Source: an uncultured Chloroflexia bacterium (GTDB taxonomy: Bacteria; Chloroflexota; Anaerolineae; B4-G1; SLSP01). Taken from it: a stretch of DNA of 64,000 nt. Location of the stretch: assembly GCA_963751345.1 (NCBI GenBank), contig CAVVUS010000030.1:1-64000 (forward strand), written 5' to 3'. Under the pieces are notes generated by a model. The model was not told the DNA's origin. It saw only the letters and a program-made list of their open reading frames with translations, and did no database searches. Of this stretch, positions 25,558 through 61,942 are shown piece by piece. Numbering within the stretch: the stretch's first letter is position 1; each line of letters begins with the position of its first letter. Both the position numbers and the translations under genes were made by a program.

Positions 25558-26259
25558 GTGAACGAGAAAGCTACAGACTCGGCAGCCCGTGAACGCGTGC
25601 GCCGGGAAGCGGAGGCCAGGGCTCGAGCCCAGGCGCGTGAGGAGGCGCGAGCCGAGGCCTGGTCGCAGACCCGCGCCCGGATTCGCGTCGCGGTTGCCGG
25701 CACCGTCCTGGTGAGCTTGTTGGTCGGCATCCTGATCGGAGCCTACGGCTTCCGACCTCACGTGGGCCGCGACGGGCAGGACATCCTCCCACCTGTAGCG
25801 TGGGACAGGTCTGGAGGGGCTGACGTGGCCCTCACGCCGTGGCCAATCCGCGTTTATGTAAGCGGCGCCGTCGCGGAGGCACGGATCGTCGAGCTGCCGC
25901 CGGGCAGCCTGGTTGCCGATGCCCTGGATGCAGTCGGTGGCACCAAGCCAGACGCCGACCCGGAGGCGCTGAACCTCGCGGCGCCCCTCTCGGACAACCA
26001 GCACGTGGTCGTGCCAACGCGCGGGGCCACCACACAGGATGGAGATGCAGCCGCGGCGCCATCGCCCATCGACATCAACACTGCGACGGCGGATGAGTTG
26101 CAGGCCCTGCCCTCCATCGGCGTCACCCGAGCGCAGGACATTGTGACATATCGGGAGGCCAATGGACCCTATCAGCGAATTGACGATATACTCTCGGTGC
26201 CGGGGATCGGCCCGGTTATCTTCGAACGCATTGCCCCGTTCATTACGGTCGAGCCGTGA
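25558..26259 (+). CDS. comEA: ComEA-family DNA receptor (TM, SLBB, helix-hairpin-helix)
   Basis: VYVSGAV, LNLAAPLSD, IDINTATADELQALPSIG, VPGIGP. Confidence 0.9.
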   Translation: MNEKATDSAARERVRREAEARARAQAREEARAEAWSQTRARIRVAVAGTVLVSLLVGILIGAYGFRPHVGRDGQDILPPVAWDRSGGADVALTPWPIRVYVSGAVAEARIVELPPGSLVADALDAVGGTKPDADPEALNLAAPLSDNQHVVVPTRGATTQDGDAAAAPSPIDINTATADELQALPSIGVTRAQDIVTYREANGPYQRIDDILSVPGIGPVIFERIAPFITVEP

Positions 26260-46505: not shown

Positions 46506-47144
46506 ATGTCGGATGACATTTTCGAGGCCTTTGGCGACGAGGATACGTACCAGGAAGAGGAAGCCGAGGCTCAAGTAGACCAGACTCAAGGCCAGAACCG
46601 CGTCTTTATCATCGCGGTGGCCGTCTTGGGTGGCCTCCTGGTGTGCGCCTTGATATCGTTTGGCGTCTGGGCCCTTGTCCTCAATCGGCCACAACAGGCA
46701 GCTCCGCCGCCGACTGAGGTCGCAGCTTCCCCGACCGCTGAAATGGTGGTGGAGGCGACGTCAACACCCGCGGCGCCGGAGGCCACGAATACGCCGCAAC
46801 CAACAGACACGCCGGAGCCCACATCGACACCCGTACTCGGCCCCACCGCAACACCCACAGCCGAGGGAGGCGGAGACGACCCACTGGCTGTAGGAGGGGC
46901 TGCGACGGCCACCGAGCCGGCAGAGGAAGCCACGCCCACGGCAACGCAAGAGCCCCGACGCACGCCGACGCCGACACGCACGCCAAGGGCTACCGCCACA
47001 CCGCGTGTAACCGGTGCGGGCACGAGCCTTGGCGGCAACTCGGGCCAGCTCTCGCAGACGGGTCTGGGCGAGTGGCTGTTGATCGGTGCGGCTGTCCTGC
47101 TGGTCGGGGTGATGATCACCGCGCGCAGGCTTCGCCGCACTTGA
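46506..47144 (+). CDS. Pro/Thr-rich surface protein with N-terminal TM and LPxTG-like C-terminal sorting signal
   Basis: Strong SD; acidic N-terminus, TM, PT-rich stalk, LSQTG + hydrophobic helix + RRLRRT. Confidence 0.8.
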   Translation: MSDDIFEAFGDEDTYQEEEAEAQVDQTQGQNRVFIIAVAVLGGLLVCALISFGVWALVLNRPQQAAPPPTEVAASPTAEMVVEATSTPAAPEATNTPQPTDTPEPTSTPVLGPTATPTAEGGGDDPLAVGGAATATEPAEEATPTATQEPRRTPTPTRTPRATATPRVTGAGTSLGGNSGQLSQTGLGEWLLIGAAVLLVGVMITARRLRRT

Positions 47145-47246: not shown

Positions 47247-48477
47247 ATGAGCACCAGATGCCATAGGTTGTCACTGACCTTCTCAGCCATCGCAGTGGTT
47301 TGTGCAGCGATGGCAACCATACTGTCGGGGTGCGCCCTGCCGCTTGCACCTCAACGCCGAATTGTGACCACCAACGTCCGCGTTGGCACCAACGTCTGCG
47401 TTGGCAGCACCGGCGTCTGAGTCGGCACCGACATCTGTGGCGCCAACATCCCCGGCCACAGCCACGCCGGCTTCCAGCCCCGTGCCCACGGCTACGCCAA
47501 CCCTCGTGCCGACGCCCGATCCGGAGCTCGTGCAAGCTGCCGCCGACGAAGGACTGGTCCGCGCGCAAGCACTGGCAGGAGAGGACGAACTGGTCTGCCT
47601 GCGTTACGAGGACACCGACGCCGACGGAGCGCCGGAGTGGGTCGCCCTGGTCCACCAATCCACTGACGTAGGCGCTCGCCTCGCAGCTTACGTGCTGGAC
47701 GGCGAAGCTGTCTATGCCCTCGAACCCGCACAGCCCAAGCCCGGCGCGGCAGATGTCGGCTTCGGGCAGTACGCCACCTGTGATATTGCCATCCGAGACG
47801 TCAACGCAGATGGTATGCCGGAGCTGGCGATCTTCGGCTACGCCGAGGGGAACCAAACGCTGCTGCATCTCTTTGCCTGGGAAGGGGCCGACTCCGACGC
47901 CGGTGGCGCGTACCGGCGGTTGGGCTTCTTTTCGGGGGACGCAGGCATCAAGTTCGCGGACGCCGACGGAGATCTCGAAGAGGAAATCTGGGAAGGCTAT
48001 CGGGTCCGGGGCGCCCCAAGCCTCGCGTTTTACATCGTGTTCACGTGGGAGAACGAGACGTATGGTTGGACCTCGGAGCACTACGATTGGTATTTTGCGG
48101 ACCGACCGCAGACCTATCCCACCGGTGCGCCGGAGTTCGCCGTCGTCTCTTTTTACCTGGCGCTGAACGACCGTGACATACCCGGTGCTTACGCGCTCCT
48201 CGCCCCGTCGTCCAGGCCCGACTATGATAGCTGGGCATTGGGCTATGCTACGACGCTCCGGGTGAGCGTCGGTGGGGTGCACACGATATCAGGCTCAACG
48301 GGAGAGAACTACGCGCGGATCGCGGCTATGGTCACCGCGTGGGATAATGAGGGCGGCGTGATCACGGGACGGCTCTGGGACGTCGAGTGGGACACGATCG
48401 GCACCGACGCGGGATGGCAACTCGTGTCGTCGACGGCAGATCTGCTGGAGACGTGGCCCGTCACCTACTGGCGGTAA
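47247..48477 (+). CDS. Hypothetical lipoprotein (PT-rich linker, DxDxDG calcium-binding-like motifs); frameshift near 47368
   Basis: Lipobox LSGC in ORF 47193-47420 joins ORF 47383-48477; DTDADG, DVNADG, DADGD motifs. Confidence 0.7.
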
Positions 48478-48526
48478 TCCCCCTCCCCATCCTTCCCTGC
48501 AGGGAGAGGAAGCCCGCAGGTGGGCA

Positions 48527-49090
48527 TCACGGCGTTTCGTAGACGAAGTTGTTATCCGCCTCGCTGAGGCGCGGCTGGACCGCATCCCGGGCCGATAGCT
48601 CGGGGGCTTGAATCGGCCACTCGATCCCGATCTCGGGATCATTCCACAGAATGCCCCGCTCGTGCTCCGGCGAGTACTCGTCCGTGACCTGGTAGATCAG
48701 GTCCACAGACTCACTCAACACACAGAATCCATGGGCGAAGCCGGGCGGAACGTAGAGAAAGTGGTGGTTGTCGCCTGACAACACCTCGCCCACCCAGGCT
48801 CCGTACGTCGGCGACCCCGCCCGGATATCGACGGCGACGTCGAAGATAGCGCCGGTGACCACAGTCATCAGTTTCCCCTGGGCGCGTGGTGATTTCTGGT
48901 AGTGGAGGCCCCGTAACACTCCCCTGGCCGAACGCGAGTGATTGGCCTGGACAAAGGCGCCGGATATGCCGGCAGCCTCAAACTCCGTCCGTTTGTACGT
49001 CTCCATAAAAAAGCCCCGCGCATCACCAAATACCCGCGGCTTGATCAGTTGTACGCCAGGAATCCGGAGCGTCTCGAATGTGAAAGGCAT
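48527..49090 (-). CDS. rfbC: dTDP-4-dehydrorhamnose 3,5-epimerase
   Basis: FGDARGFFMET, GVLRGLHYQ, DVAVDIR, VPPGFAHGF, WNDPEIGIEWP. Confidence 0.95.
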   Translation of the reverse strand: MPFTFETLRIPGVQLIKPRVFGDARGFFMETYKRTEFEAAGISGAFVQANHSRSARGVLRGLHYQKSPRAQGKLMTVVTGAIFDVAVDIRAGSPTYGAWVGEVLSGDNHHFLYVPPGFAHGFCVLSESVDLIYQVTDEYSPEHERGILWNDPEIGIEWPIQAPELSARDAVQPRLSEADNNFVYETP

Positions 49091-49107
49091 AGGTATCGTC
49101 TCCTCAC

Positions 49108-49437
49108 TCAGTGGGGCCAGGCCCACACCAGGATGAGCGCGGCAACGAGCCAAGTCAGTGTGGCGCCCAAGAGAGCTAGTGTCAGGCTCACACGGTCGAC
49201 CAGGACGTAAAGCGCGCCCATGTAGGCACAATACGGCAACAGGGAGACCATGCCAAATCGGATCGTGGCCTTCAGGTCGCCCACCGTCCGTTGTGTGCCG
49301 ACGATGTAGTGCGATATCAGCGTGAACGTCGGAAACAAGGGAACCAAGCCGGCAAGATAGGACCGCTGCGACCGGGCTACAAGCTGGATGATCACGACAA
49401 CGACAGCGCCGAAGAGTGCTTTGAGCAGCAGATCCAT
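49108..49437 (-). CDS. GlpM/YdgC family membrane protein
   Basis: LLLKALFGAVVV, YLAGLVPLFPTF, HYIVG. Confidence 0.85.
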   Translation of the reverse strand: MDLLLKALFGAVVVVIIQLVARSQRSYLAGLVPLFPTFTLISHYIVGTQRTVGDLKATIRFGMVSLLPYCAYMGALYVLVDRVSLTLALLGATLTWLVAALILVWAWPH

Positions 49438-49465
49438 GGCTCGCCTTTACCTGGTCGCCGAGCAG

Positions 49466-50552
49466 CTAGCGGAGGCCCCGGTAGAATCGGGAAGCGAGTG
49501 GATAGAGCGGGTTCAGCGCGCGTTCCCACAAGCCCAGTGTAGCGCACAACCTCACCGCCGAACCCCCGCTTGAACCGGTAGACTCCCCACAGACCGTCGC
49601 TGCGCTCTGTGAATTCCGCTTCCAGCGTCTCCTCGTCGGCATCGGGTATGCCCCATAGGTCATACGTCGTGCATCCGCGCGCCCTTGCCCAACGAATTGC
49701 GGCCCATTGGACGGCATAGGCCGGCATGAGATTTCGATGCCGGTCGGATGAGGCGCCGTAGATGTACCATGACTTCTTCCCGACCGCAAAGACCATCAGC
49801 CCGGCCAGCGGTTCTCCTTCGTGCTCGGCGAGGAGCAGGGCAACCTCGCCCTCGGGTGCAAAGAGTTCGAGCGCTTTCCTGTAGTAGGCCAGCGTGTGCA
49901 CCCCGAATTCATCCCGTTCGCCGGTTACCTCCATCAGGTCGTGGTACGTCTCCACATCGGCTATCGAGCCCTCTCGGACGGTGACCCCCTTGCGCTCTGA
50001 AAGCCGGATGTTATAGCGGGTTTTTGACTTCATCGTCATCAGGATATCCTCCTCGGGAGGGGAGATATCCAATACGATGGTCCGTCGCGGCTGTATGGTG
50101 CGGACGGCTCGGCGGTAGCCGATATCCGCCAAGAAAGCTTCGGTGTGCGGCAGCGATGCAGGATGGGCTGATGCGTTGCCCACCTCGGGCTCGATCCAGC
50201 AGGCCCAAGCCCTGCGCTTGCGCGCAGCAGCATGGAGTGCCGCAAAGAGCTCGGTGGCCGCCGTGCGGTCCGACCAGTCGACGAGCGGGCCGCGTGGCAC
50301 GTAGGCCAGGGTGCCGAGACCTAACGGCAGCTTGCGATAGAGCACGATGGCCCCCGCCCTGGGAGCGTCCTTATCACCAACAGTGACCAGTTCCCAGTCC
50401 CACCCAAAGCCCGCCTTCAGCCTTCCCCATTGGGTCGTCTGGAGCAGATTACCGCAGGGGTGCGCCGCCACAAATCGGTTCCACGATTCGAAGCGGACAC
50501 CCTCCGTCGTCGTCCCCAGCCGACCCACAAAAGCCATAGCCGACCTATCCAC
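49466..50552 (-). CDS. FemAB/FemX family peptidoglycan bridge aminoacyltransferase; frameshift near 49525
   Basis: LLQTTQWGRLK, YVPRGP, KSKTRYNIR, YIYGAS, YDLWGI, GVYRFKRGFGG. Confidence 0.9.
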
Positions 50553-51415
50553 CCTTCTCGCCTACAACGAGCAGTCCGCCCCCAACGCCATCCGCCGGAA
50601 CGTCCGCCGTGTAGGCCTCTCGCCAACGCTGCCCCAACGTCCGCACGACCCATCGTCTGATCCAGCGCTGATAGCCGAAGCGGCGCAGCCGGGGAGACGC
50701 AAGCCAGCGATAGAGGGTGCCACGCTGCAAAAGGCCCGAATGCGCCCCCGGGCACACTCCGAACGCCGTAGGCGGTATTACCCTGATCCCACAGGGCCAT
50801 CACAGCGGGGGGCACGTAGTAGACCGTGCGGACGAGCCGCAGCCCCACACGCTCCAGGATTGCGCCCCATTCCTCCGGGGTAGGATAGCGGTAGTGTGCG
50901 AGCCACGCATCGACGCCCGCAGCGTAAGCCTCAGCCCCTGCCATATCTCCGGCAGCCGCTCGATCGCGGTAGCCAGCCAACAGGCGTCGAAACGCGTCAC
51001 TCGGTACGGTGAAGATGACCCGACCACCGGGACGGACGACACGGGCAGCTTCGCGCAAGACCGGGTCGAGATCCGGTATGTGTTCGAGGACGGAGTTGCT
51101 GAGCAGGGAGCCAAACGCCACGCTGGCGTAGGGCATCGCGTCGCCCATTGCCTGCTGGACCGAACAATAGGCACGCGTTGCGGGGGCCTTCCGCACTTGA
51201 TCAAGCCAGGGGTCGAAGCCTACTTCGATCGGCGGGTCGCCGCCGAACAGCACCTGTGCGATGAGGCCGTCCCCACATCCCAGATCCAAGATCGGGCGAG
51301 GGAATTCCTCGGCGGCCAACGTACGCAACTCGATCGCCCGCCACAGTGCGACCGGCGGTGCAAACCAGTACTGGTCGAGCAGCAGCGTCAGATAATCACG
51401 TGATGGGTCGGGCAT
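50545..51415 (-). CDS. Class I SAM-dependent methyltransferase; frameshift near 50730
   Basis: LWRAIE, ILDLGCGDG, SNSVLEHI, RVVRPGG. Confidence 0.82.
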
Positions 51416-51594
51416 TTGGGATATCGGCGATCCTAATCTGGGTTGGCACTACGTCATCCACGGTAGCACGGGCGCCACCGATGCCGTGCGCGCAGGTCGT
51501 TTGTACCACGAACGTGCCGGAACACAATTCTGCAAGGGGTAGCAATGCGTCGCACAGGCCGGGCGCCTCGCGAGGATGATGGGCCCGCCAGAGC

Positions 51595-52122
51595 CTAGAC
51601 GTCAATATCCCGGGCATGGGGAGCAGCATCGAAAAGCTGTCCCAGCATCCATCGTGTCAAGGTCAGGACCAAGGCCACCGCGAGCCCCAAGCCGATGGCG
51701 AGCCCGATGAACCCGGCGAGCACGTACCCCCCGGCAGCGAAAGTGAGGGCGCCCAGAACCGTGCCTCCAAGCGTGATCAGCCCGACGACGCCATGACGAA
51801 CTTCCCGGCGAATGAAGAGGCGGCGCGCTGTGCGCTGAACTGCCTGGCAATATGGACACCTGATCCGGCGCCGAAGTTCGCGCTCCAATCTGGGCGTCAC
51901 CATCGTCACATCCATTGTCCGGCGGCCTCTGCTGACGGCGCCGTCGACGCCCACCTGGAAACCATAGCTGAAAGAACGTCCACACAACTCGCAGACGACA
52001 TCACGGCGCATCTGAAGCCGCACGTCGTGCCAGCGCCCGGTGCCGTTCCCGCCCGTCTGCACGCCGGCAATCGAGAACCCGTACAATTTCATCAGATCCG
52101 ACAGATAAGGGTCGGGCAACAT
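51595..52122 (-). CDS. Hypothetical protein with split zinc ribbon and two C-terminal TM helices
   Basis: CELCG...CPYC followed by two hydrophobic segments. Confidence 0.7.
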   Translation of the reverse strand: MLPDPYLSDLMKLYGFSIAGVQTGGNGTGRWHDVRLQMRRDVVCELCGRSFSYGFQVGVDGAVSRGRRTMDVTMVTPRLERELRRRIRCPYCQAVQRTARRLFIRREVRHGVVGLITLGGTVLGALTFAAGGYVLAGFIGLAIGLGLAVALVLTLTRWMLGQLFDAAPHARDIDV

Positions 52123-52169
52123 ACATCTATTTCCGGTCTATCTGCAACTCTACGATCGGACTTCTCTCG

Positions 52170-53527
52170 TCAGTCCAGGAGGCGGAGCAGGCCTGCGACG
52201 GTATCGCCCCACCCAACCATATTCAGCGCCAGCGGCAGCAGCAAGACTCCCATAGCGTTCATGCGTCGAGCGCCCCACAGGGCCGGGATGAGCCCGATAC
52301 CGGTAGCGACGGCGCAAATCCCCAATCCCACGGGCCCCGTCACACCCACAACCACGAGCAGCAGCAAGGCCAGGGTCGCCCAACTGATCACCCGATAGGC
52401 CACGTGAGACACCAGCGCCATCACGGCCCGCGCCAAGCTCAGCGATAGCAGAAAGGCGATCACGCCCGCTACCAAGGCCCCAGCCGTTGCCCTCAGATAC
52501 TGCCTCGGGCGTGGTGGCAGTATACCGCGTACTGACCATCCAGGCCATACCCCCACGTGTGAGATGGAGCCCGGGGACAAAGAAGAGCAGAAAGCCACCC
52601 ACGTAGTAGACCATCTTTGCCGCTCCCTGGGCGATCAGAAACGTGCGCTCGTCACGTTGGCCGGTCGCCTGGCCCGCAAGGAAGCCACCGATCCCCCCGG
52701 TTACTACCGGGAAGAACGCCGCAAAGACGCCGCCGAGGGTGCCGGACGCGACCCCCTGGACTACGTTGAGCCACGAGACATCCACGCTGCGCGCCGCAAC
52801 CTGTGACGGCAGCGCCACTCGCCCCACCAGATTGAGCACGACCCAGGGCACGGCAAAGAGTCCCACGAACGCCGGCAGAAGGTTTTGATAGGCCACCTGG
52901 ACGGGCACCGGAGACCGGTAGAGGAGGATGAGCCCTAGCGCTCCCGAGAGCACAAAGGTCGCCAGACCGGCCACCAGCGACCGCCATCCATCCCACCATC
53001 GCTGCCAGCGACCGATCGCCGCATGGCTGTCTGCAGCCGCACGGTTCGCCGCAGCCGCACGGCCCGTCCCCTTGGGCCACTCGGACGCCAACATAGTAGG
53101 CGATGACCGCCCATAGCAGCCAACCCAGGTGCGGCTGCAGGATCTGACGGATGGCCGGTAGGACTCGCGACGCGACAGGCGTCCAGGCGACCAGCGCCGC
53201 CAGCCCCCCAAGGCTCCCGAGGCCCGTCAGAACTACCGCCTCATAGCCCCTTCTCTGCAGCAGATAGGTCTGGCCGGGCAGGACCACGAAGATCATACTC
53301 TCGTCGGGAGCCGAGAAAAAGACGCTCGGGATCGTGTTCACCATCGCATAGCCGGTCACCATACCGAGGAAGAGAAAAGCCAGCGGCTCGCCGCCGATGG
53401 AGAGGCGCCCGGACCCCACGAGCAGAAGGAGCAGGCCCGCCACATTGTAGATGTGCAGGGCGGGGATCAGGGCCAGCACGGAGGCACCCACGGCGCCCGC
53501 AAGGGCCCACAGGAGCAGACTAGCCAT
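52170..53527 (-). CDS. TctA/DUF112-type permease (short, archaeal-like form); frameshifts near 53097 and 52500
   Basis: LIPALHIYN, NTIPSVFFSAPD, VLPG, LLPAFVGLFAVP, AFFPVVTG, C-terminal MNAMGVLLLP; three ORF pieces join. Confidence 0.78.
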
Positions 53528-55154
53528 CGGGTGGCCTCACACGCCAGTCATAGAGAGAGCGGGGAATCAGCTCCAGTGCCTCGCGGTAGACATTGAGCGT
53601 GCCCACAATCTCGGCCAGCTCGCCGGCTTGCGGGACCGGGTTCAGCCCCGTGTAGAGATCCGACCACAGAACCACCGTGATCTCACCTGTACCATCATTA
53701 AGCGGCACCATCACCCCTGCGGAGAAGCCCCGCGGCTCGCCGAGTACGCCGCGGATCCTGACCACACGTCCGGCGTCACCCAATGTGAGGCCGGCAACCT
53801 CGACCCAGGTCGCCGGCTCCGCCGCGACGAGAATCAACACGTCTGCGGCGTCTGCCGGAATCACCTCCACACTTCCCTCGTAGATCGAGACGATCCCGAG
53901 CGCCTCGACATCAGCGCCGGCATCAAAGGCCGTCGGCACAGCCATGGCCTGATACACGTCATTCCAGAGCAGAAGTGTGATCTGTGCGGTCCCGTCATCG
54001 AGTGCGGCTTTGACACCTCCCTTAAGCCCTTCGAGCAACGCAATCCGCCCGCGCACCCTCACCATCTGACCCTCGAGCTGCGCATCGACCTGGCTCAATG
54101 GCAGCACCGGGATGGGTGTCGGCTCAGGCGTGGGCTCGGAGGTCGGCGTGAACGTCAGGGTAGGAGGGACCTCAGGCACAGCCTGGGCGACGGGTGTGGG
54201 ACCACCCTCATTCTCAGGTGTAGGCACCGGTGTGGGACCCCGCTCATTCGCGGGGGTGGGCACAGGCACGACCTCCTCCGCAAGGGCGAAGGTCGCAGGC
54301 AGTAGCTTGATATCGGCGACACTTGCGGGGGCGATCTGCGGCGTTGACCCATAGAGTGTGATAACGCCCTCCACCTCGGCGGTCTGGCCAACGGTGCACT
54401 CGGGAAGAGGACCCGTCAACGATGTCACGACGTCATCCACGGCGACGACAATCTCCCCGCTGTCGTCGCCAATCGTCCATAGAACGAGGCCGTCATAGGG
54501 TTCGTAGATCCGCCGCACCTCACCCGAGAGCCGTACCCGTGTGCCCTCATCCAGAAGGGTGACGTCACCGGCTTTGAACGGGATCGCGTCAGGACGATCG
54601 AGTGTCACATGATCGGCCACGTTGATCGTCAAAGAGGTATAGTCCTCGCGGATCCCGAGGGTCCCGGCCACGGACACCTGATCCCCAATGGCAGGCGGGG
54701 TCCCACGGGCCAGCAGCTCTGCCGTGACATCGCGATATGCGTTGACGTAAGCTTCCCCGGTGCCGTCATCCAACCAGAACCCAAGATAGCCGCTCTCGGC
54801 GTCGTAGCTGAGATTTCTGGAGATGCGGCCCTCCAGCCGTACATAGGCGAAGTTCATGGCGCCGGTAGCCTCGGCGACCGAGATGATGGGTACCTCAACG
54901 CGACGTGCCTGCCACCACAGCAGCGCCAGGCCGACCGTCGCCATCAGGAGGGCCATCGCCTTGACCACGCGGATCTGCAGCCGTCCGTGGATGCGGGCGC
55001 CACAATAGGGGCAGCGTTCGTAGGGCCCGACAAAGCGCCCGCAACTGTCACACAAAGCAGAGCGAGGAGAGTCTACAGGAGGGTCGGAGTCAGAGGGGGC
55101 GTCCGGGAGGGAGGATCGGTCGTCAATCGGCGGCTGAACGGAATCCAAGGGCAC
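53520..55154 (-). CDS. Zinc ribbon + single TM + four OB-fold nucleic-acid-binding domains
   Basis: CDSCG...CPYCG, TM, four repeats of VRxxGxx...[DN]D[GS][TG]x...V/IxG; PT linker containing a 12-aa duplication. Confidence 0.8.
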   Translation of the reverse strand: MPLDSVQPPIDDRSSLPDAPSDSDPPVDSPRSALCDSCGRFVGPYERCPYCGARIHGRLQIRVVKAMALLMATVGLALLWWQARRVEVPIISVAEATGAMNFAYVRLEGRISRNLSYDAESGYLGFWLDDGTGEAYVNAYRDVTAELLARGTPPAIGDQVSVAGTLGIREDYTSLTINVADHVTLDRPDAIPFKAGDVTLLDEGTRVRLSGEVRRIYEPYDGLVLWTIGDDSGEIVVAVDDVVTSLTGPLPECTVGQTAEVEGVITLYGSTPQIAPASVADIKLLPATFALAEEVVPVPTPANERGPTPVPTPENEGGPTPVAQAVPEVPPTLTFTPTSEPTPEPTPIPVLPLSQVDAQLEGQMVRVRGRIALLEGLKGGVKAALDDGTAQITLLLWNDVYQAMAVPTAFDAGADVEALGIVSIYEGSVEVIPADAADVLILVAAEPATWVEVAGLTLGDAGRVVRIRGVLGEPRGFSAGVMVPLNDGTGEITVVLWSDLYTGLNPVPQAGELAEIVGTLNVYREALELIPRSLYDWRVRPPDG

Positions 55155-55163
55155 CTCCTCAGA

Positions 55164-56051
55164 TCAGGTCACCTCGTGGACGGGCCAGATCATCTCGTGT
55201 TGTCGCTGCCAGACCCGGTAACCCACCGCCATGTAGGCCGGGAGCAGCGGATCATCGGCCGGTACGTTGACGGTATGCCCCCCAAAGTCAGGCCGTGTGC
55301 CGTGGAGTGCAGAGAGGAGCTCCCCGGCGACCTGCAGACGCCGGGGATGCGCCGGATCGACCCCCAGGTCGAGAACCGCATAGGCGTCCGACTGCGGCTG
55401 ATAGAGCAGATAGCCGGCCAGATCCGGCCCCTCCCGAAGGGAGAGGCCCAACAGGCGCCCCGCGCGGTGAGTGAGCGAGGCGAGGTCCCTCTGCCAGGAG
55501 GGATCGACTTCGTGGAAGCGGCCATGCGCGGGCAATAGCCGGCTTGGCGGTTCTTCCGATACGTCGTGTGTTGGTGAAGTGAGTGGCACCCAGCCGGGCT
55601 CAAACGTCAACACCAAGAGGTCCCGGACCTTGACGAATCCGAGTCCCTCGTAGAGCAAGATAGCCGCGCCATTCTGCTCCAACACCTCGAGGCGAAGACG
55701 GTCGAAGCTGTCTTGCTGTGACACCCGTTGGATCCACTGAATCATCTGCCGCGCGATGCCGCGGCGCCGCCAGATGGGATGAACGCCAACACCGCTAATC
55801 CACCCCTCGGTCCCCCGGCAGGAAAGCAGGGCCAACCCTACCGGGAGCTCGCCCAGGGTCCCGCCCGGGGCCCTGCCCTGCATCGCTACGACAGATCGCT
55901 CGAGGTCAACATCCATATCGTCACACATCAGCTTGAACTGAAAAGGATCAAGCCTGACCGGGACGAAATAGTCGGCGTACGCCTGATTCAGAAGCTGGGA
56001 GAGACGCTTGGCAGTCAAGGATGCTGCAGGCGTCAAGGTCAACCTGTCCAT
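55164..56051 (-). CDS. GNAT family N-acetyltransferase (tandem domains)
   Basis: GVGVHPIWRRRGIAR, LEVLEQNGAAILLYEGLGF. Confidence 0.88.
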   Translation of the reverse strand: MDRLTLTPAASLTAKRLSQLLNQAYADYFVPVRLDPFQFKLMCDDMDVDLERSVVAMQGRAPGGTLGELPVGLALLSCRGTEGWISGVGVHPIWRRRGIARQMIQWIQRVSQQDSFDRLRLEVLEQNGAAILLYEGLGFVKVRDLLVLTFEPGWVPLTSPTHDVSEEPPSRLLPAHGRFHEVDPSWQRDLASLTHRAGRLLGLSLREGPDLAGYLLYQPQSDAYAVLDLGVDPAHPRRLQVAGELLSALHGTRPDFGGHTVNVPADDPLLPAYMAVGYRVWQRQHEMIWPVHEVT

Positions 56052-56160
56052 TGTCCACCTCACTGGCCCATCATAGCATGGCTGGGGGAACTACACAACA
56101 CTTTGTTGTCTGGCGCCACCCGGCAAAGGAGCCACACTCAGGCTGGGGCCTCTCGATAAG

Positions 56161-56193
56161 GACCCTTGTCATGACCCTTGACGTAGCTATACT
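56161..56193 (+). promoter_or_regulatory. Putative promoter with GACCCTTG direct repeats
   Basis: TTGTCA-N16-TATACT; GACCCTTG at 56161 and 56173. Confidence 0.5.
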
Positions 56194-56253
56194 GGGCGCT
56201 GACGATAGCGCACAGACATACCATGACGCATCTATGAAACAAAGAGGGTTAAG

Positions 56254-57297
56254 ATGACACTTCCCACGGTCCCGATCGACGAGACGCTGGATTTCCTGGT
56301 CGGTCTGCTCAATACCCCAAGCCCAACAGGTGACACAGCACGAGCCTGTCTCTACGTGCAGACGGCCCTGGCAGAGTTGCCCCTGACGGTTTCCCACACC
56401 CGCAAGGGCGGGTTGGTGGTCACCTGGGCAGGCGACAACAGCTGCCCGCGCGCCCTCACGGCTCACGTTGACACGCTGGGCATGATGGTCCGCCAGGTCA
56501 AGGCAAATGGACGATTGATGCTTACCCAGATCGGGGGCTACGATTGGCACTCCGTCGAGGGCGAGGGATGCACGGTCATGACGGGCACCGGAGAGATGAT
56601 CCGGGGCAGCATTCTGCCAACCAAGGCCTCGGTGCATATCTACGGCAACGAGGCTCGCGAGCTGAAACGCGAGGCCGGGAACTACGAGGTGCGCCTGGAT
56701 GTCCGCACTCAGAGCAAGGATGAAACCGAATCCCTGGGGATCGGCGTTGGGGACTTCGTCTTCGTCGATCCGCGGGTGGAGGTGACGAACGGTTTCGTCC
56801 GCTCGCGACACCTCGACGACAAGGCCGGCGTCGCTGCCATCTATGGCGCACTGATGGCACTGCACCAGACGGGTCGAGCACCCCGTTACCGCCTGGACGT
56901 ATTGATCTCCAATTACGAAGAGGTCGGCCACGGCGGGTCCGTGGGGATCCCCGGTGACGTTGAGGAGCTGGTTACCGTGGATATGGCAGCCGCCGGAGAG
57001 GATCAGAACTCGGACGAGTTCTCGGTCGGGATCTGCGCCAAGGACTCGGGGGGGCCCTATCATCTGGGTCTGCGACGGCGCCTTGAACGGCTTGCAGCCT
57101 CCAACAGCATCCCATATCGTACGGATACGTACCCCTACTACGGCTCCGACGGTGAGGCTGCATGGCGGGCAGGTGCCGACCTTGCGGTCGGCCTGATCGG
57201 GCCCGGCGTCGATAGCTCTCACGCCTATGAGCGCACGCATCTTGACTCGCTGGACGCAACCATCCGGCTGCTGCTGGCCTATCTCCTGAGCGAGTGA
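56254..57297 (+). CDS. M42 family metallopeptidase
   Basis: PSPTG, AHVDTLG, SRHLDDK, EEVGHG, KDSGGPY, SHAYER. Confidence 0.92.
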   Translation: MTLPTVPIDETLDFLVGLLNTPSPTGDTARACLYVQTALAELPLTVSHTRKGGLVVTWAGDNSCPRALTAHVDTLGMMVRQVKANGRLMLTQIGGYDWHSVEGEGCTVMTGTGEMIRGSILPTKASVHIYGNEARELKREAGNYEVRLDVRTQSKDETESLGIGVGDFVFVDPRVEVTNGFVRSRHLDDKAGVAAIYGALMALHQTGRAPRYRLDVLISNYEEVGHGGSVGIPGDVEELVTVDMAAAGEDQNSDEFSVGICAKDSGGPYHLGLRRRLERLAASNSIPYRTDTYPYYGSDGEAAWRAGADLAVGLIGPGVDSSHAYERTHLDSLDATIRLLLAYLLSE

Positions 57298-58370
57298 CGA
57301 TGGCCGATCTGGACGCGCGGCTTGACTGGCAGGTACCGTATCTTACGGAAGATCTGCCGGGAATTGGAGGGGTGATCCGCGACGAGGCGGAGGACTTCGT
57401 GGTGGACGAGGTCCCGGCGTACGAGCCCTGTGGCGACGGCGAGCACACCTACTTTCGCGTCGAAAAGCGCAACGTCGACACGATGCGGCTCGTGAGAGAG
57501 ATCGCGCAGAAGTTGGACCTACCTCCACGCGCCATCAGCTACGCAGGGCTCAAGGACGCCCGCGCCGTCGCGCGGCAGACCTTCTCGGTGCAGTTTGTAC
57601 CGGTCGAGACCATCGAGTCGCTCCAGCTCGACAACGCGCGCATTCTATGGGTGTCGCGCCATCGCAACAAGCTGCGCATCGGACACTTGCGTGGAAATCG
57701 CTTCACCCTTCGTGTTCGCGAGGTCGAAGCCGACGCGGAATCTCGAGCGGCAGCCATACTCAAAACGTTGATGGCGCGCGGCGTCCCTAACGCCTATGGA
57801 CCTCAGCGATTCGGCAACCACGGCGACAACCATATCGCCGGATTTCACCTGCTTCACGATGACAAGGCGGCGTTGGCCGAAATGGGCATCCGTCACCTCT
57901 CGCGCCGTTTGCACGGGCTGTTCATCAGCTCGCTGCAGTCGGCGCTGTTCAACCAGGTCGTTGCCCTTCGCATTCGGCAGGGCACCCTGGACACCGTCAT
58001 TCCCGGCGACATCGCCCGCAAAGAGGACACCGGTGGGATCTTCACCGTGACCGATGTCGCCGTCGATCGTCCGCGTGCAGCGGCCTGGGAGATCTCTGCA
58101 ACGGGGCCCGTCTTCGGGGATAAGATCATGCAGGCTCAAGAGGAGGCCGGGGAGATCGAATCACAGATCCTCGCCGCTGCAGGCCTGAGCCTGGAAGATT
58201 TCCGAGCGAGCAAGGAGCACGGGGTGCGGCGCCCTTTGCGCTTCAACCCCGAGGGCCTGACATGGCACGTCGAGGATCGTGATCAGTTGGTGGTGAGTTT
58301 CTTCTCGCCCAAGGGTTCGTTTGCGACGATGCTCCTCCGCGAGTTGATGAAGACCGGAGACGTACGATGA
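57294..58370 (+). CDS. truD: tRNA pseudouridine(13) synthase
   Basis: EDFVVDE, GEH, YAGLKDARA, GHLRGNRF, PNAYGPQRFG, KGSFATMLLREL. Confidence 0.95.
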   Translation: MTMADLDARLDWQVPYLTEDLPGIGGVIRDEAEDFVVDEVPAYEPCGDGEHTYFRVEKRNVDTMRLVREIAQKLDLPPRAISYAGLKDARAVARQTFSVQFVPVETIESLQLDNARILWVSRHRNKLRIGHLRGNRFTLRVREVEADAESRAAAILKTLMARGVPNAYGPQRFGNHGDNHIAGFHLLHDDKAALAEMGIRHLSRRLHGLFISSLQSALFNQVVALRIRQGTLDTVIPGDIARKEDTGGIFTVTDVAVDRPRAAAWEISATGPVFGDKIMQAQEEAGEIESQILAAAGLSLEDFRASKEHGVRRPLRFNPEGLTWHVEDRDQLVVSFFSPKGSFATMLLRELMKTGDVR

Positions 58371-58414
58371 CCAACCTTCGCAAGGGTTCCGGATCATCGT
58401 GAGGTGAGTTGACC

Positions 58415-59197
58415 ATGGCTGACCCGCCCACAGGAGAAGAACGTGACGTCACGCCCCGCGGGGGAGCGTCGATTGATGGCGCATCCCTGGCCCTTGTCAT
58501 TGTGTTGGCGGCTGTCGTCGCCGCCCTATCCTTTATTCCTTTCTCGGTCATGCTGGGGTCCGCCGGTAGCATTGAGATGTCCGAAGGCGTCTATCCCCTG
58601 GTGGGCTGGATTCTGGGGCCAATTGCGGGAGCGGTCGCGTCGGGTATTGGCCGGCTCGTAGGCGTCTTCCTGGCGCCGCAGACGGCGGGCGTGCCGATTG
58701 TGTCGGTGCTAGGCGCAGCGATCGGCAGTTTCGCCGCCGGATCGATGGTTCTGGCGGGGCGGCGCAAGCACTGGTGGATCTGGTTGACCATCCTGTTCGT
58801 CATCGAGTATCTGTTGTTTGCCGGGCGGGCAGTAGTGCAGAACGGCGTGGGCCTGTGGCCCGCCATCGGGGCGTCCTTCATCGATTGGTCGGGCATCCTG
58901 CTCTTCGCGCTGCCCACGCGGCGTTGGGTGGCGCGCTGGCTCAAGAGTCCGAATCTCGCGTGGGTGGCTGCGGGGCTCTTTCTTGGCACATGGATGGTCT
59001 CAGGGCTGACCCACCTCGACTCAGGCGTCATCACCTATTTCATCTACAATTGGCCGGAAGCGGTCTGGTTAGTCCTCATCCCGATCATCCCGGTCGAAAA
59101 CCTCTTCCGCTGTCTCATCGGCACCGTCATTGGCACGGGGGTCATCGCCGGTCTGCGTGCGATTGGCATTGTCAAGCCCCGTGAGGCCGTCTACTGA
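58415..59197 (+). CDS. ECF transporter substrate-binding (S) component, putative
   Basis: Polytopic; PLVGWILGPIAGAVA motif; lies upstream of the ECF A and T genes. Confidence 0.72.
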   Translation: MADPPTGEERDVTPRGGASIDGASLALVIVLAAVVAALSFIPFSVMLGSAGSIEMSEGVYPLVGWILGPIAGAVASGIGRLVGVFLAPQTAGVPIVSVLGAAIGSFAAGSMVLAGRRKHWWIWLTILFVIEYLLFAGRAVVQNGVGLWPAIGASFIDWSGILLFALPTRRWVARWLKSPNLAWVAAGLFLGTWMVSGLTHLDSGVITYFIYNWPEAVWLVLIPIIPVENLFRCLIGTVIGTGVIAGLRAIGIVKPREAVY

Positions 59198-59220
59198 GCC
59201 GCGATCACGTTAGCGCGGGC

Positions 59221-61094
59221 TTGATGGCGTCCATCGCGACCCTGGACAACGTCTCCTACCTCTACCCACGATCCGACGAGCCTGTGCTCAGGGACGTCTC
59301 GCTGGAGATCGCGCGGGGGGAGTTCCTCGGCCTGATCGGTCCGACGGGCGCAGGAAAGACCACGCTCTGCCTCACGCTGAATGGCATCGTCCCGCAGTTC
59401 TACGGGGGGCGGTTTTTCGGTCGCGTGACGGTAGCCGGCCTCGATAGTCTCGACCACCCCATCAGCACGATGGCGCAGCACGTCGGGATGGTCTTCGAGG
59501 ATCCGGAGACGCAGATCACGGCGACCTCGGTGGAGAATGAGATCGCCTTCGGTATGGAAAACCTCCGCGTACCCCGCGAGGAGATCGAGGCACGCATTCC
59601 CCGGATACTGGAAGCCGTCCGTCTCACAGGCAGCGAGAAAAAGCGCCCCGACGAACTCTCAGGAGGTGAGAAGCAGCGCCTGGCCATTGCCGCCGCACTT
59701 GGCGTTGCAGCCCGACCTCCTGGTCCTCGACGAGCCCACGTCTCAACTGGATCCCGTGGGATCCGGGGATATCTTCGCCACCTTACGCGAGCTGAATCGT
59801 CAACTCGGCATAACAATCGTCATCGCAAGCCACGCGGCCGAGGAAATGGCGGAGTACACAGATCGCGTCGCCCTACTCTCACGGGGAGAGCTGATCCGCG
59901 TCGGCTCACCCGACGACATCTATGGTGACGTCGACCAACTCCATGCGCGCCGGCCTGCGCCCGCCCCAGGTGGCCGAGACATTCTTCCTGCTCCGCAGCC
60001 GCGGCGTCCCCGTCCCCACCATTCCCATCACGCTCGCCGACGCCCTGCCGCTTCTCGACGATCTTCCTACTCCCACCAACCTTCGCGAGGTTAAGCCCGA
60101 GCAGCCTCGGGCCGAAACCTTGCGAAGGTTTCCGGACATCTCGCCGGGCACAGCAACACCGTCAGTTGACGCTATTCGCCCTTCAAACCGGGCTGCTGAC
60201 CTCGCGACGGTTGGCACTGCCTCTCCTGTGCCCGATCCCCGATCACCCAGTCCCCAATCCCTGGCCCTATCGGCCCGCGACTTGCACCACGTCTACCCCG
60301 ACGGCACCCACGCGCTGCGCGGCATTTCGGTCGACATCAGTGCGGGAGAATATGTGCTCATCGCCGGACAGAATGGCGCCGGAAAGAGCACGCTGGTCAA
60401 GCACTTTCTCGGGCTGCTGCAGCCGACATCGGGCCAGGTGCAGGTCGGCGGCATCGACAGCCGGAAGCTCTCGGTCAGCGACCTGGCGCGGACCGTCGGT
60501 TACGTCTCTCAGAATCCCGACAACCAGATCTTCAATGCCACGGTGGAGGAGGAGGTGGCGTTTGCCCTCAAGAACCTGGGCTTTCCGAAGCGCCAGGTGG
60601 AATCCGCGGTCACCGAAAGCCTGGCGGAGATGGGGCTGCTTGACGTCAGGGACCGGCATCCCCTGGCGCTCCCAAAGGGCGACCGCGCGCGGGTGGTGAT
60701 CGCAGCCGTCCTGGCCATGGACCCGCAGATCCTCATCTTCGACGAACCCACCACGGGCCAGGATGACCGGGGCGCGAAATCCATCCTGGAGATCACCCGC
60801 CGGCTTCACAAAGAAGGCAGAACCGTCGTCATCATCACCCATCACCTTTACCTGATGCCCAAGTACGCGGAGCGTATGGTCGTCATGGGAAAAGGCATCA
60901 AGCTCCTCGACGCACCCATGCGCCAGGCGTGTCACGAGGCAAAGGTGCTGGCATCGACGTATCTGAGCCCTCCTCAGGCTGTGCTCTTGGCGCAGGCGCT
61001 CGACCGGCGAAAGTACCCCGAGGCCGGTCAGTTGATCACACCCGAGGAGGTCGCGGCCTACGTTGCGGGGCAGGATAGGGCGCCCACGTTATGA
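59221..61094 (+). CDS. ECF transporter fused double ATPase (A-A'); frameshifts near 59701 and 59948
   Basis: GPTGAGKT, LSGGEKQR, LDEPTSQLD; second domain GQNGAGKS, FDEPTTGQD. Confidence 0.88.
60078..60130. repeat. REP-like hairpin in-frame inside the ECF ATPase linker
   Basis: aaccttcgcgaggtt ... gcccgag-cagc-ctcgggc ... aaccttgcgaaggtt. Confidence 0.75.
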
Positions 61095-61942
61095 CGCCCC
61101 ATACGTTCCAGAGTGTCGACCGCGCTTCGTTCTTCACCCGGATGGACTTTCGCCCGAAACTGGCGCTGATGACCTCATTGACGATCGTCGCATTCACTTG
61201 GGAGAGCCCCACACTGGGGGGACTGTTGGCCCTGGCGGTCATCCTTGGCGGGCTCGCGGCAGGCGTGAGGCCAAGCTACGTCCTCAAGGCGTTTCTGGCG
61301 ATGCTTCCCTTCTACCTTTTCGTTGTCGTGACACAGGGATTCTTCGGCGGCGAAATCGTCCGCGCACGCACGGGGCAGACGACGCTGACGCCGCTGTTTA
61401 CCTTGCCGAAGGGCTGGTGGTTAGTCGGCGGGGCCACGATGTCGGTCGAAGGGATCAAATATGCCCTGAACATCGTGTTCAAGGCCCTCACGATGACAAT
61501 GGTGATCCCGTTGGTCGTCTTTACGACGGACGTCAACGCGATGATCGTGGGCCTGGTGAAAGCGCGTATCCCCTACACGATCGCCTTTGTCTTCTCGTCG
61601 ACGCTGCGGTTTTTCCCACTGCTGGTGGCCGACCTGCAATCGATCATTGAGGCGCAGCGATTGCGCGGCCTGGCTTTCGAAAGAATGGGTCCCATCCGTC
61701 GCGCCAGGGTCTACGCAAAGGTCGCCGTGCCCCTGATCCTGGGCGCGATCGTGAAGTCCCAGATGCTGGAGGTCGTGCTACAATCCAAAGCCTTCTCCGG
61801 CTCCCCCGACCGCACCTATTATCACGAATCGCGGTTGGCCTTCGCGGATTACACGGTCTTTGCCCTCTCCGCCCTCTTCCTCCTCGCCGCCGCCGTGCTC
61901 TATCTTGGTCTCGGGATCGGCAAGTTCGGGGGTCCGGTATAA
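61091..61942 (+). CDS. ECF transporter transmembrane T component
   Basis: MDFRPKL, LRFFPLL, EAQRLRG, VPLI, QSKAF. Confidence 0.9.
   Translation: MTPHTFQSVDRASFFTRMDFRPKLALMTSLTIVAFTWESPTLGGLLALAVILGGLAAGVRPSYVLKAFLAMLPFYLFVVVTQGFFGGEIVRARTGQTTLTPLFTLPKGWWLVGGATMSVEGIKYALNIVFKALTMTMVIPLVVFTTDVNAMIVGLVKARIPYTIAFVFSSTLRFFPLLVADLQSIIEAQRLRGLAFERMGPIRRARVYAKVAVPLILGAIVKSQMLEVVLQSKAFSGSPDRTYYHESRLAFADYTVFALSALFLLAAAVLYLGLGIGKFGGPV

Follow-up and report, generated by a model that had tools for sequence, protein, structure and literature searches.

The window analysed here, 64,000 nucleotides of contig CAVVUS010000030.1 from a soil Chloroflexota bacterium, carries on its minus strand a gene for a membrane-anchored array of OB folds, followed by a gene for a short TctA-like permease; the two overlap by 8 bp (ATGGCTAG). 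The OB gene and the permease gene are a real, translationally coupled and strongly conserved pair. We give about an even chance to the reading that this pair is the Chloroflexota counterpart of a transformation module of Methanococcus, and that it captures extracellular nucleic acid and imports it through the permease. The overlap, which an earlier note on this DNA had described, is present: the OB gene ends with TAG at 53522-53520 and the permease ATG lies at 53527-53525, so that the stop codon falls within the first codons of the permease. Scans for promoters and terminators around the operon gave nothing usable. The pair and the parts of the OB-array protein are as follows.

53520..55154, minus strand: gene for the membrane-anchored OB-array protein, 544 amino acids (aa), GTG start (open reading frame, ORF; Pfam; AlphaFold2; homologues).
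55002..55052, minus strand: zinc ribbon, predicted to be cytoplasmic, residues 35-51, CxxC...CxxC (conserved cysteines; weak Pfam DZR match, E 0.072).
54900..54974, minus strand: single membrane helix, residues 61-85 (AlphaFold2 helix; bias in lysine plus arginine, K+R).
54291..54869, minus strand: OB folds 1 and 2, residues about 96-288 (AlphaFold2 strands; Foldseek).
54114..54290, minus strand: disordered Pro/Thr/Glu-rich spacer, residues about 289-347 (predicted local distance difference test score, pLDDT, 45-51; sequence).
53523..54113, minus strand: OB folds 3 and 4, residues about 348-544 (Pfam PF13742 at 357-428 and PF01336 at 461-534; AlphaFold2).
52170..53527, minus strand: gene for the short TctA-like (PF01970) permease, in three frames in the assembly (Pfam, in two pieces).

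The 544-aa protein matches two Pfam OB families, PF01336 (E 2.9e-20) and PF13742 (E 4.5e-10), and both are matched in all of the homologues that were aligned to it (46/46); RMI2 is matched in 23/46 and DUF5689 in 9/46. An AlphaFold2 model made with that alignment (mean pLDDT 87.4) has a helix at 61-85 and four OB barrels, at about 96-188, 196-288, 348-445 and 446-544, with a low-confidence, Pro/Thr-rich spacer at about 289-347. Each of the zinc-ribbon cysteines, Cys35, Cys38, Cys48 and Cys51, is kept in 45 of the 46 homologues. Thus, the conserved cysteines, the model and the Pfam matches recover the architecture proposed in the earlier note, namely a zinc ribbon, one transmembrane (TM) segment and four OB folds. 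The wider search found 179 homologues at E<=0.001, and the ESM Atlas neighbours of the protein are bacterial (Chloroflexota, Kiritimatiellota and Verrucomicrobiota). The ratio of nonsynonymous to synonymous substitution rates (dN/dS) of the gene is 0.10 relative to L001, the corresponding locus in a metagenome-assembled genome (MAG) of a Chloroflexota relative that is 88% identical in DNA over the region.

On which side of the membrane do the OB folds lie? Across the 46 homologues, the 20 residues before the helix contain 1.96 K+R on average and the 20 residues after it 0.24; the number is higher before than after the helix in 38/46 homologues and equal in 7. Together with the Pro/Thr spacer, this bias predicts that the N-terminus and zinc ribbon are inside the cell and the OB array is outside, in agreement with the outward orientation suggested earlier. 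The kind of OB fold points to nucleic acid. The top Foldseek matches in the PDB are tandem-OB DNA binders, led by p204 HINab on double-stranded DNA (5z7d, E 1.7e-13); further matches are Teb1 AB (3u58), RPA (4gop), POT1 and the Oxytricha telomere end-binding protein. When PDB sequences were searched with a profile, the only matches, to RPA32 and STN1, were weak. The family type that had been claimed, OB folds of the nucleic-acid-binding sort, is borne out by the Pfam families and the Foldseek matches.

The permease partner belongs to PF01970 (TctA) and stands well apart from its canonical members. Two pieces of the permease in the window match this family (E 1.2e-12 and 2e-09). P0121, the intact permease encoded at L001, matches it end to end (protein 5-419, profile 1-422 of 423), and in this whole-length match it resembles the TctA of canonical TctABC, the citrate uptake system of Salmonella. 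The resemblance ends there: P0121 scores 104 bits and measures about 445 aa, the bacterium's own genome shows neither TctB nor TctC, and the partner is a tethered OB array. PF01970 copies in 151 sampled Chloroflexota genomes fall into two classes, a canonical class with 357-556 bits and open frames of about 500-520 aa, and a P0121-type class with 67-127 bits. A quick maximum-likelihood tree was made with 7 of the 12 canonical loci, 91 of 150 library representatives (those of 380-470 aa, the other 59 being excluded on length) and 8 Chloroflexota rows. In this tree, the 7 canonical TctA rows are split from the 99 short-type rows by a long branch with an SH-like approximate likelihood-ratio support (SH-aLRT) of 100. 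The permease is the sole PF01970 match in the bacterium's own genome (G000), which is 93.4% complete and in which both TctB (PF07331) and TctC (PF03401) have 0 matches. The earlier description of a short, divergent TctA that lacks TctB and TctC therefore holds for the genome as assembled, and by these comparisons the pair does not belong to the canonical tricarboxylate transporters. The permease matches no NCBIfam family. An AlphaFold2 model of P0121 (pLDDT 92.7; predicted template modelling score, pTM, 0.91) contains 17 helices, and a crude hydropathy script counts ~10-12 hydrophobic segments; Foldseek of the model against the PDB found nothing at E<=0.001, and a profile search of PDB sequences found nothing at E<=0.01.

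The archaeal pair has been studied by genetics. According to the portions of the report available to us, in-frame deletion of either MMJJ_13020 (an OB fold and one TM) or MMJJ_13030 (TctA-like, 11 TM) abolishes natural transformation in Methanococcus maripaludis, and both deletions were complemented (PMC10133366). The same source has a TctA-like homologue as also essential for transformation in M. thermophilus (PMC10133366). Hence, the methanogen transformation pair that the earlier note had mentioned is real. Compared by published description, the archaeal and Chloroflexota pairs are alike in that adjacent genes encode a single-pass OB-fold protein and a short TctA-family permease, in that TctB and TctC are absent, and in that the OB folds are of the nucleic-acid type. 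They differ in that the bacterial host also has ComEC, ComEA and DprA. In addition, the bacterial protein has a zinc ribbon and four OB folds, whereas the available portions of the paper give no number of OB folds for the archaeal protein.

Is the Chloroflexota permease itself related to archaeal ones? P0396, a protein from a MAG named as Hydrothermarchaeales, aligns to P0121 over its full length (27% identity, E 1e-41), and most ESM Atlas neighbours of P0121 come from archaea, which we take as a lead. Judged from these comparisons, the permease family spans archaea and bacteria. The closest match with an archaeal name, P0247 ("Methanomethylicaceae", 43% identity), was rejected, its label being doubtful: it lies on a 3.4-kb contig, and the protein's own best matches are Chloroflexota-named. 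Thus, of the suggestion that an archaeal-type system resides in a bacterium, what stands is a single named archaeal relative, similar over its full length at 27% identity; the closest match offered for it carries a label that cannot be trusted. We found no report of an OB/TctA-like pair in bacteria in the literature searched.

Within the bacterium's own order, the pair is the rule. The permease is encoded in 56/60 relatives of the same order and the OB protein in 57/60, and permease identity across the order is 60-75%. Outside the order the permease type is scarce: it occurs in 3/300 other genomes of a phylum-wide sample (4/301 when the own genome is counted). An OB match lies in the upstream flank (<=1.5 kb) of the permease in 28/35 genome loci, with L001 and L012 standing for one site of a single genome. 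The seven loci with no upstream OB match are L006, L007, L009, L023, L025, L034 and L040; several of these genomes encode the OB protein at another place. The metagenome set comprises 80 loci at 58-73% identity, all from the same lineage and none archaeal. Upstream sequence of at least 1200 nt is available for 56 of these: 37 have the OB gene next to the permease, a further 10 have it within 4 kb, and 9 show none. The conservation claimed for the pair is therefore confirmed for one Chloroflexota order, in which the two genes are usually adjacent.

Two variants of the arrangement deserve mention. In families f70 and f71 (e.g. G337, G340, G344 and G355), a short OB paralogue is directly upstream of the permease, and the long zinc-ribbon OB protein is encoded on another contig. 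A database protein of 852 aa, P0279, has apparent OB-like repeats fused N-terminal to a TctA-like permease (weakly supported by hhalign against the OB alignment, with probability 15% and E 0.0017). If real, this fusion would be a Rosetta-stone link of the two parts.

A third protein appears to belong with the pair. A gene for a YdjM-family membrane protein (PF04307, E 5.5e-14) is downstream of the permease in L007, L034, L040 and 10/61 metagenome loci. The own genome encodes a full-length orthologue at an unlinked position, G000:C10:141428-142411 (L058:1498-2541; PF04307, E 5.3e-14), with 45-50% identity by tblastn and by a protein search of the genome; the YdjM-like protein here has an inserted soluble domain. 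This form of YdjM is present in 4/301 phylum-level genomes, which are exactly those with the permease type (G000, G002, G015 and G121), and in 52/60 relatives of the order. Three genomes, G307, G351 and G353 (97%, 91% and 90% complete), are without the permease, the OB protein and the YdjM-like gene alike. Because the unlinked genes co-occur and are co-lost, the distribution argues for a functional trio of OB protein, permease and putative YdjM-like hydrolase; these genomes are kin, and hence the co-occurrence does not amount to a statistical test. What a literature search on YdjM turned up concerns, for the most part, an unrelated Bacillus namesake.

The earlier note had described the module as a candidate for DNA uptake independent of ComEC, and had proposed a check of the genome for comEC, dprA and pilus genes. 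That check found ComEC (G000:C18:17280-18086, E 9.1e-54), DprA (E 1.3e-78) and two PilB-type ATPases. Moreover, the window itself encodes a ComEA-like protein at 25558-26259 on the plus strand, about 26 kb from the module: it is 233 aa long, with an N-terminal hydrophobic segment, an SLBB match (E 3.4e-10) and an HHH_3 match (E 2.7e-20). ComEC is also present in 54/60 relatives of the order. A need for a ComEC-independent system is thus not supported and, with ComEC, ComEA and DprA all present, the module would be a second route, for instance for scavenging, and not a replacement.

ComEC is pictured as three domains: an OB domain, a channel and a nuclease. The proposed logic of the trio resembles the ComEA/ComEC machinery in that an extracytoplasmic DNA-binding element is combined with a polytopic membrane protein and a putative metal hydrolase, the YdjM-like protein. 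The two systems differ at the level of families: neither gene of the pair encodes the Competence domain PF03772, which has no match in the OB protein, the permease pieces or P0121, and a genuine ComEC is encoded elsewhere in the genome. DUF4131, which we take to be the N-terminal domain of ComEC, is weakly matched in 10/46 homologues of the OB protein at E<=0.01 (best E 5.2e-07); the OB protein of the window has no match to it at E 0.1.

How might such a module work? We propose that the bitopic OB protein would keep its zinc ribbon in the cytoplasm and display two pairs of OB folds outside the cell, with the flexible Pro/Thr spacer between them. In the role that a soluble binding protein has in tripartite transporters, the OB array would bind nucleic acid outside the cell, as single-stranded DNA or oligonucleotides, and pass it to the permease for import. 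The YdjM-like hydrolase, its gene being unlinked in this genome, probably acts together with the pair, and possibly processes the nucleic acid. In this scheme, we infer the substrate, the direction of transport and physical contact between the proteins.

Several observations weigh against nucleic-acid import by the Chloroflexota pair. The authors of the archaeal study themselves put forward the TctA-like protein as a DNA transporter in the form of a hypothesis, in the portions of the report available (PMC10133366). OB domains 1-4 are all acidic (pI 4.4, 4.1, 4.1 and 4.5, with D+E exceeding K+R), which is unusual for DNA binders. The genes neighbouring the pair are unrelated to competence or pili, and a staphylococcal-type nuclease (PF00565) was not found in the own genome. 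Since ComEC, a ComEA-like protein and DprA are present, a second DNA importer is not needed here. Finally, the fold of the permease is like that of a secondary transporter, and no fold match points to a polymer channel. The standout match in VIA-align is barley YS1, a metal-chelate transporter of the OPT family (7wsr_A, Z 10.9); next come Pho90, INDY, ArsB and TRAP transporters with Z 5-6, values that may reflect a common helical arrangement alone.

The main alternative explanation, which we consider possible but on balance doubtful, is that the module is a secondary transporter dependent on a binding domain and specific for a solute other than nucleic acid, such as an organic anion, a metal chelate or an oligosaccharide. 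TctC would then be replaced by the OB array as a tethered substrate-binding component, and the transformation defect of the archaeal mutants would be indirect. The acidity of the OB domains, the best structural match to an OPT-family protein and the weak resemblance to elevator-type anion transporters all fit this explanation, as does the membership of the permease in PF01970, a family of carboxylate transporters. OB fold 1 also weakly matches a periplasmic stress/BOF OB family (NF033674, E 9e-05), with BOF matched in 2/46 homologues, and the high conservation of the permease across the order is what would be expected of a metabolic transporter. Furthermore, MMJJ_13030 mRNA is raised under selenium depletion in M. 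maripaludis and, in the part of that report available to us, is listed among transporter genes (PMC11097638). Against a solute other than nucleic acid, each of the two archaeal genes is essential for transformation, with both deletions complemented (PMC10133366), and the OB folds match nucleic-acid-binding families and structures. In addition, it is a membrane hydrolase, and not metabolic enzymes, with which the module is found to co-occur, and no catabolic genes adjoin the pair.

A second alternative is that the trio serves the biogenesis of the cell envelope or of surface structures, for example by export or turnover of a surface polymer, and that DNA uptake in the archaea is affected solely by way of the cell wall or pili. 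The screen in the archaeon did return many pilus or surface genes, as far as the accessible text goes (PMC10133366), and the neighbours of the module in the window include genes for a FemAB-family protein and a dTDP-sugar epimerase. Similarly, the own YdjM-like gene adjoins ORFs that, judged from their translations, encode an apparent glycosyltransferase-like membrane protein and a LysM-like protein. Conservation of these neighbours does not extend past close relatives, FemAB being near the pair in 10/35 genome loci and 3/80 metagenome loci, and the three proteins have no resemblance to known flippases or polymerases. We therefore regard an envelope function as improbable.

In the assembly, the permease gene is read in three frames. 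DNA alignment with L001 places two single-base insertions in the permease gene of the window, at about 53095 and about 52504, and also reveals an in-frame 18-bp insertion. Relatives have intact permease genes of 445-451 aa, the L001 copy (P0121) being 445 aa. An intact database protein, P0123 (451 aa), tiles the three window frames at residues 1-165, 145-354 and 340-451, free of gaps and stops and with 87-94% identity. With each segment analysed in its own frame, dN/dS relative to L001 is 0.12, 0.07 and 0.07, as expected under purifying selection. Over the 13.6 kb shared with L001 (window 47500-61100), there are 9 single-base insertions in the window and 4 in L001. Several of the window insertions hit other genes, including an ABC ATPase at about 59700 (ORFs 59221-59928 and 59537-60094) and a methyltransferase at about 50752. 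A contig from an independent public run, X1, covering 52368-52525, is one letter shorter at 52502, although at a depth of 4 this observation is weak alone. Because there are intact relatives, low dN/dS in every segment, many other insertions and an independent contig without one of the extra bases, we conclude from the comparison that the frameshifts are most likely assembly errors and that the gene is intact in nature. That the permease is instead a true pseudogene in a decaying locus, as the two assembled frameshifts and the lack of any independent contig over the 53095 site would allow, is very improbable in view of the same evidence. More generally, gene calls across this genome need to be read with frameshifts in mind.

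Two further genes flank the pair.

51595..52122, minus strand: accessory 175-aa gene encoding two CxxC motifs and two hydrophobic segments (ORF).
55164..56063, minus strand: GNAT acetyltransferase gene, 9 bp upstream of the OB gene (Pfam PF00583, E 2.6e-15).

The first of these had been proposed as a part of the module, as a zinc-ribbon gene with two TM segments. Its product is 74% identical in L001/L012, there is a weak, degenerate copy in L027, and the gene is downstream of the permease in 5/61 metagenome loci with enough downstream sequence. This sporadic distribution indicates that it is a lineage-restricted accessory gene and not a core component. Its dN/dS is 0.23, and neither Pfam nor NCBIfam has a family for it. 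What directly follows the permease in most same-genus loci is a methyltransferase gene. The GNAT acetyltransferase gene is also near the pair in L001, L002 and 19/80 metagenome loci. Further away in the window, two plus-strand ORFs at 46506-47144 and 47383-48477 have long Pro/Thr-rich stretches and no Pfam family; they may encode surface proteins.

What is the significance of such a pair in Chloroflexota? To our knowledge, how DNA passes across the membrane in archaea is unknown, and the OB/TctA-like pair is the sole candidate importer so far. A pair of that kind is here seen to be conserved over an entire order of bacteria, where a membrane hydrolase co-occurs with it and ComEC is present as well. 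A more far-reaching proposal, which we put forward tentatively and consider unlikely as it stands, is that the outward OB array, the permease and the YdjM-like protein together make up one three-part nucleic-acid importer that is common to archaea and several bacterial lineages. Such an importer would follow the same logic as ComEC, with a binder, a conduit and a hydrolase, and in this order it would provide a second route beside ComEC. Whichever substrate the module has, its conservation in Chloroflexota offers bacterial systems in which that substrate can be tested. The presence of ComEC in the same genomes makes these bacteria a natural test between two possibilities: genuine DNA import, for which the module would be redundant with ComEC, and scavenging or transport of a solute.

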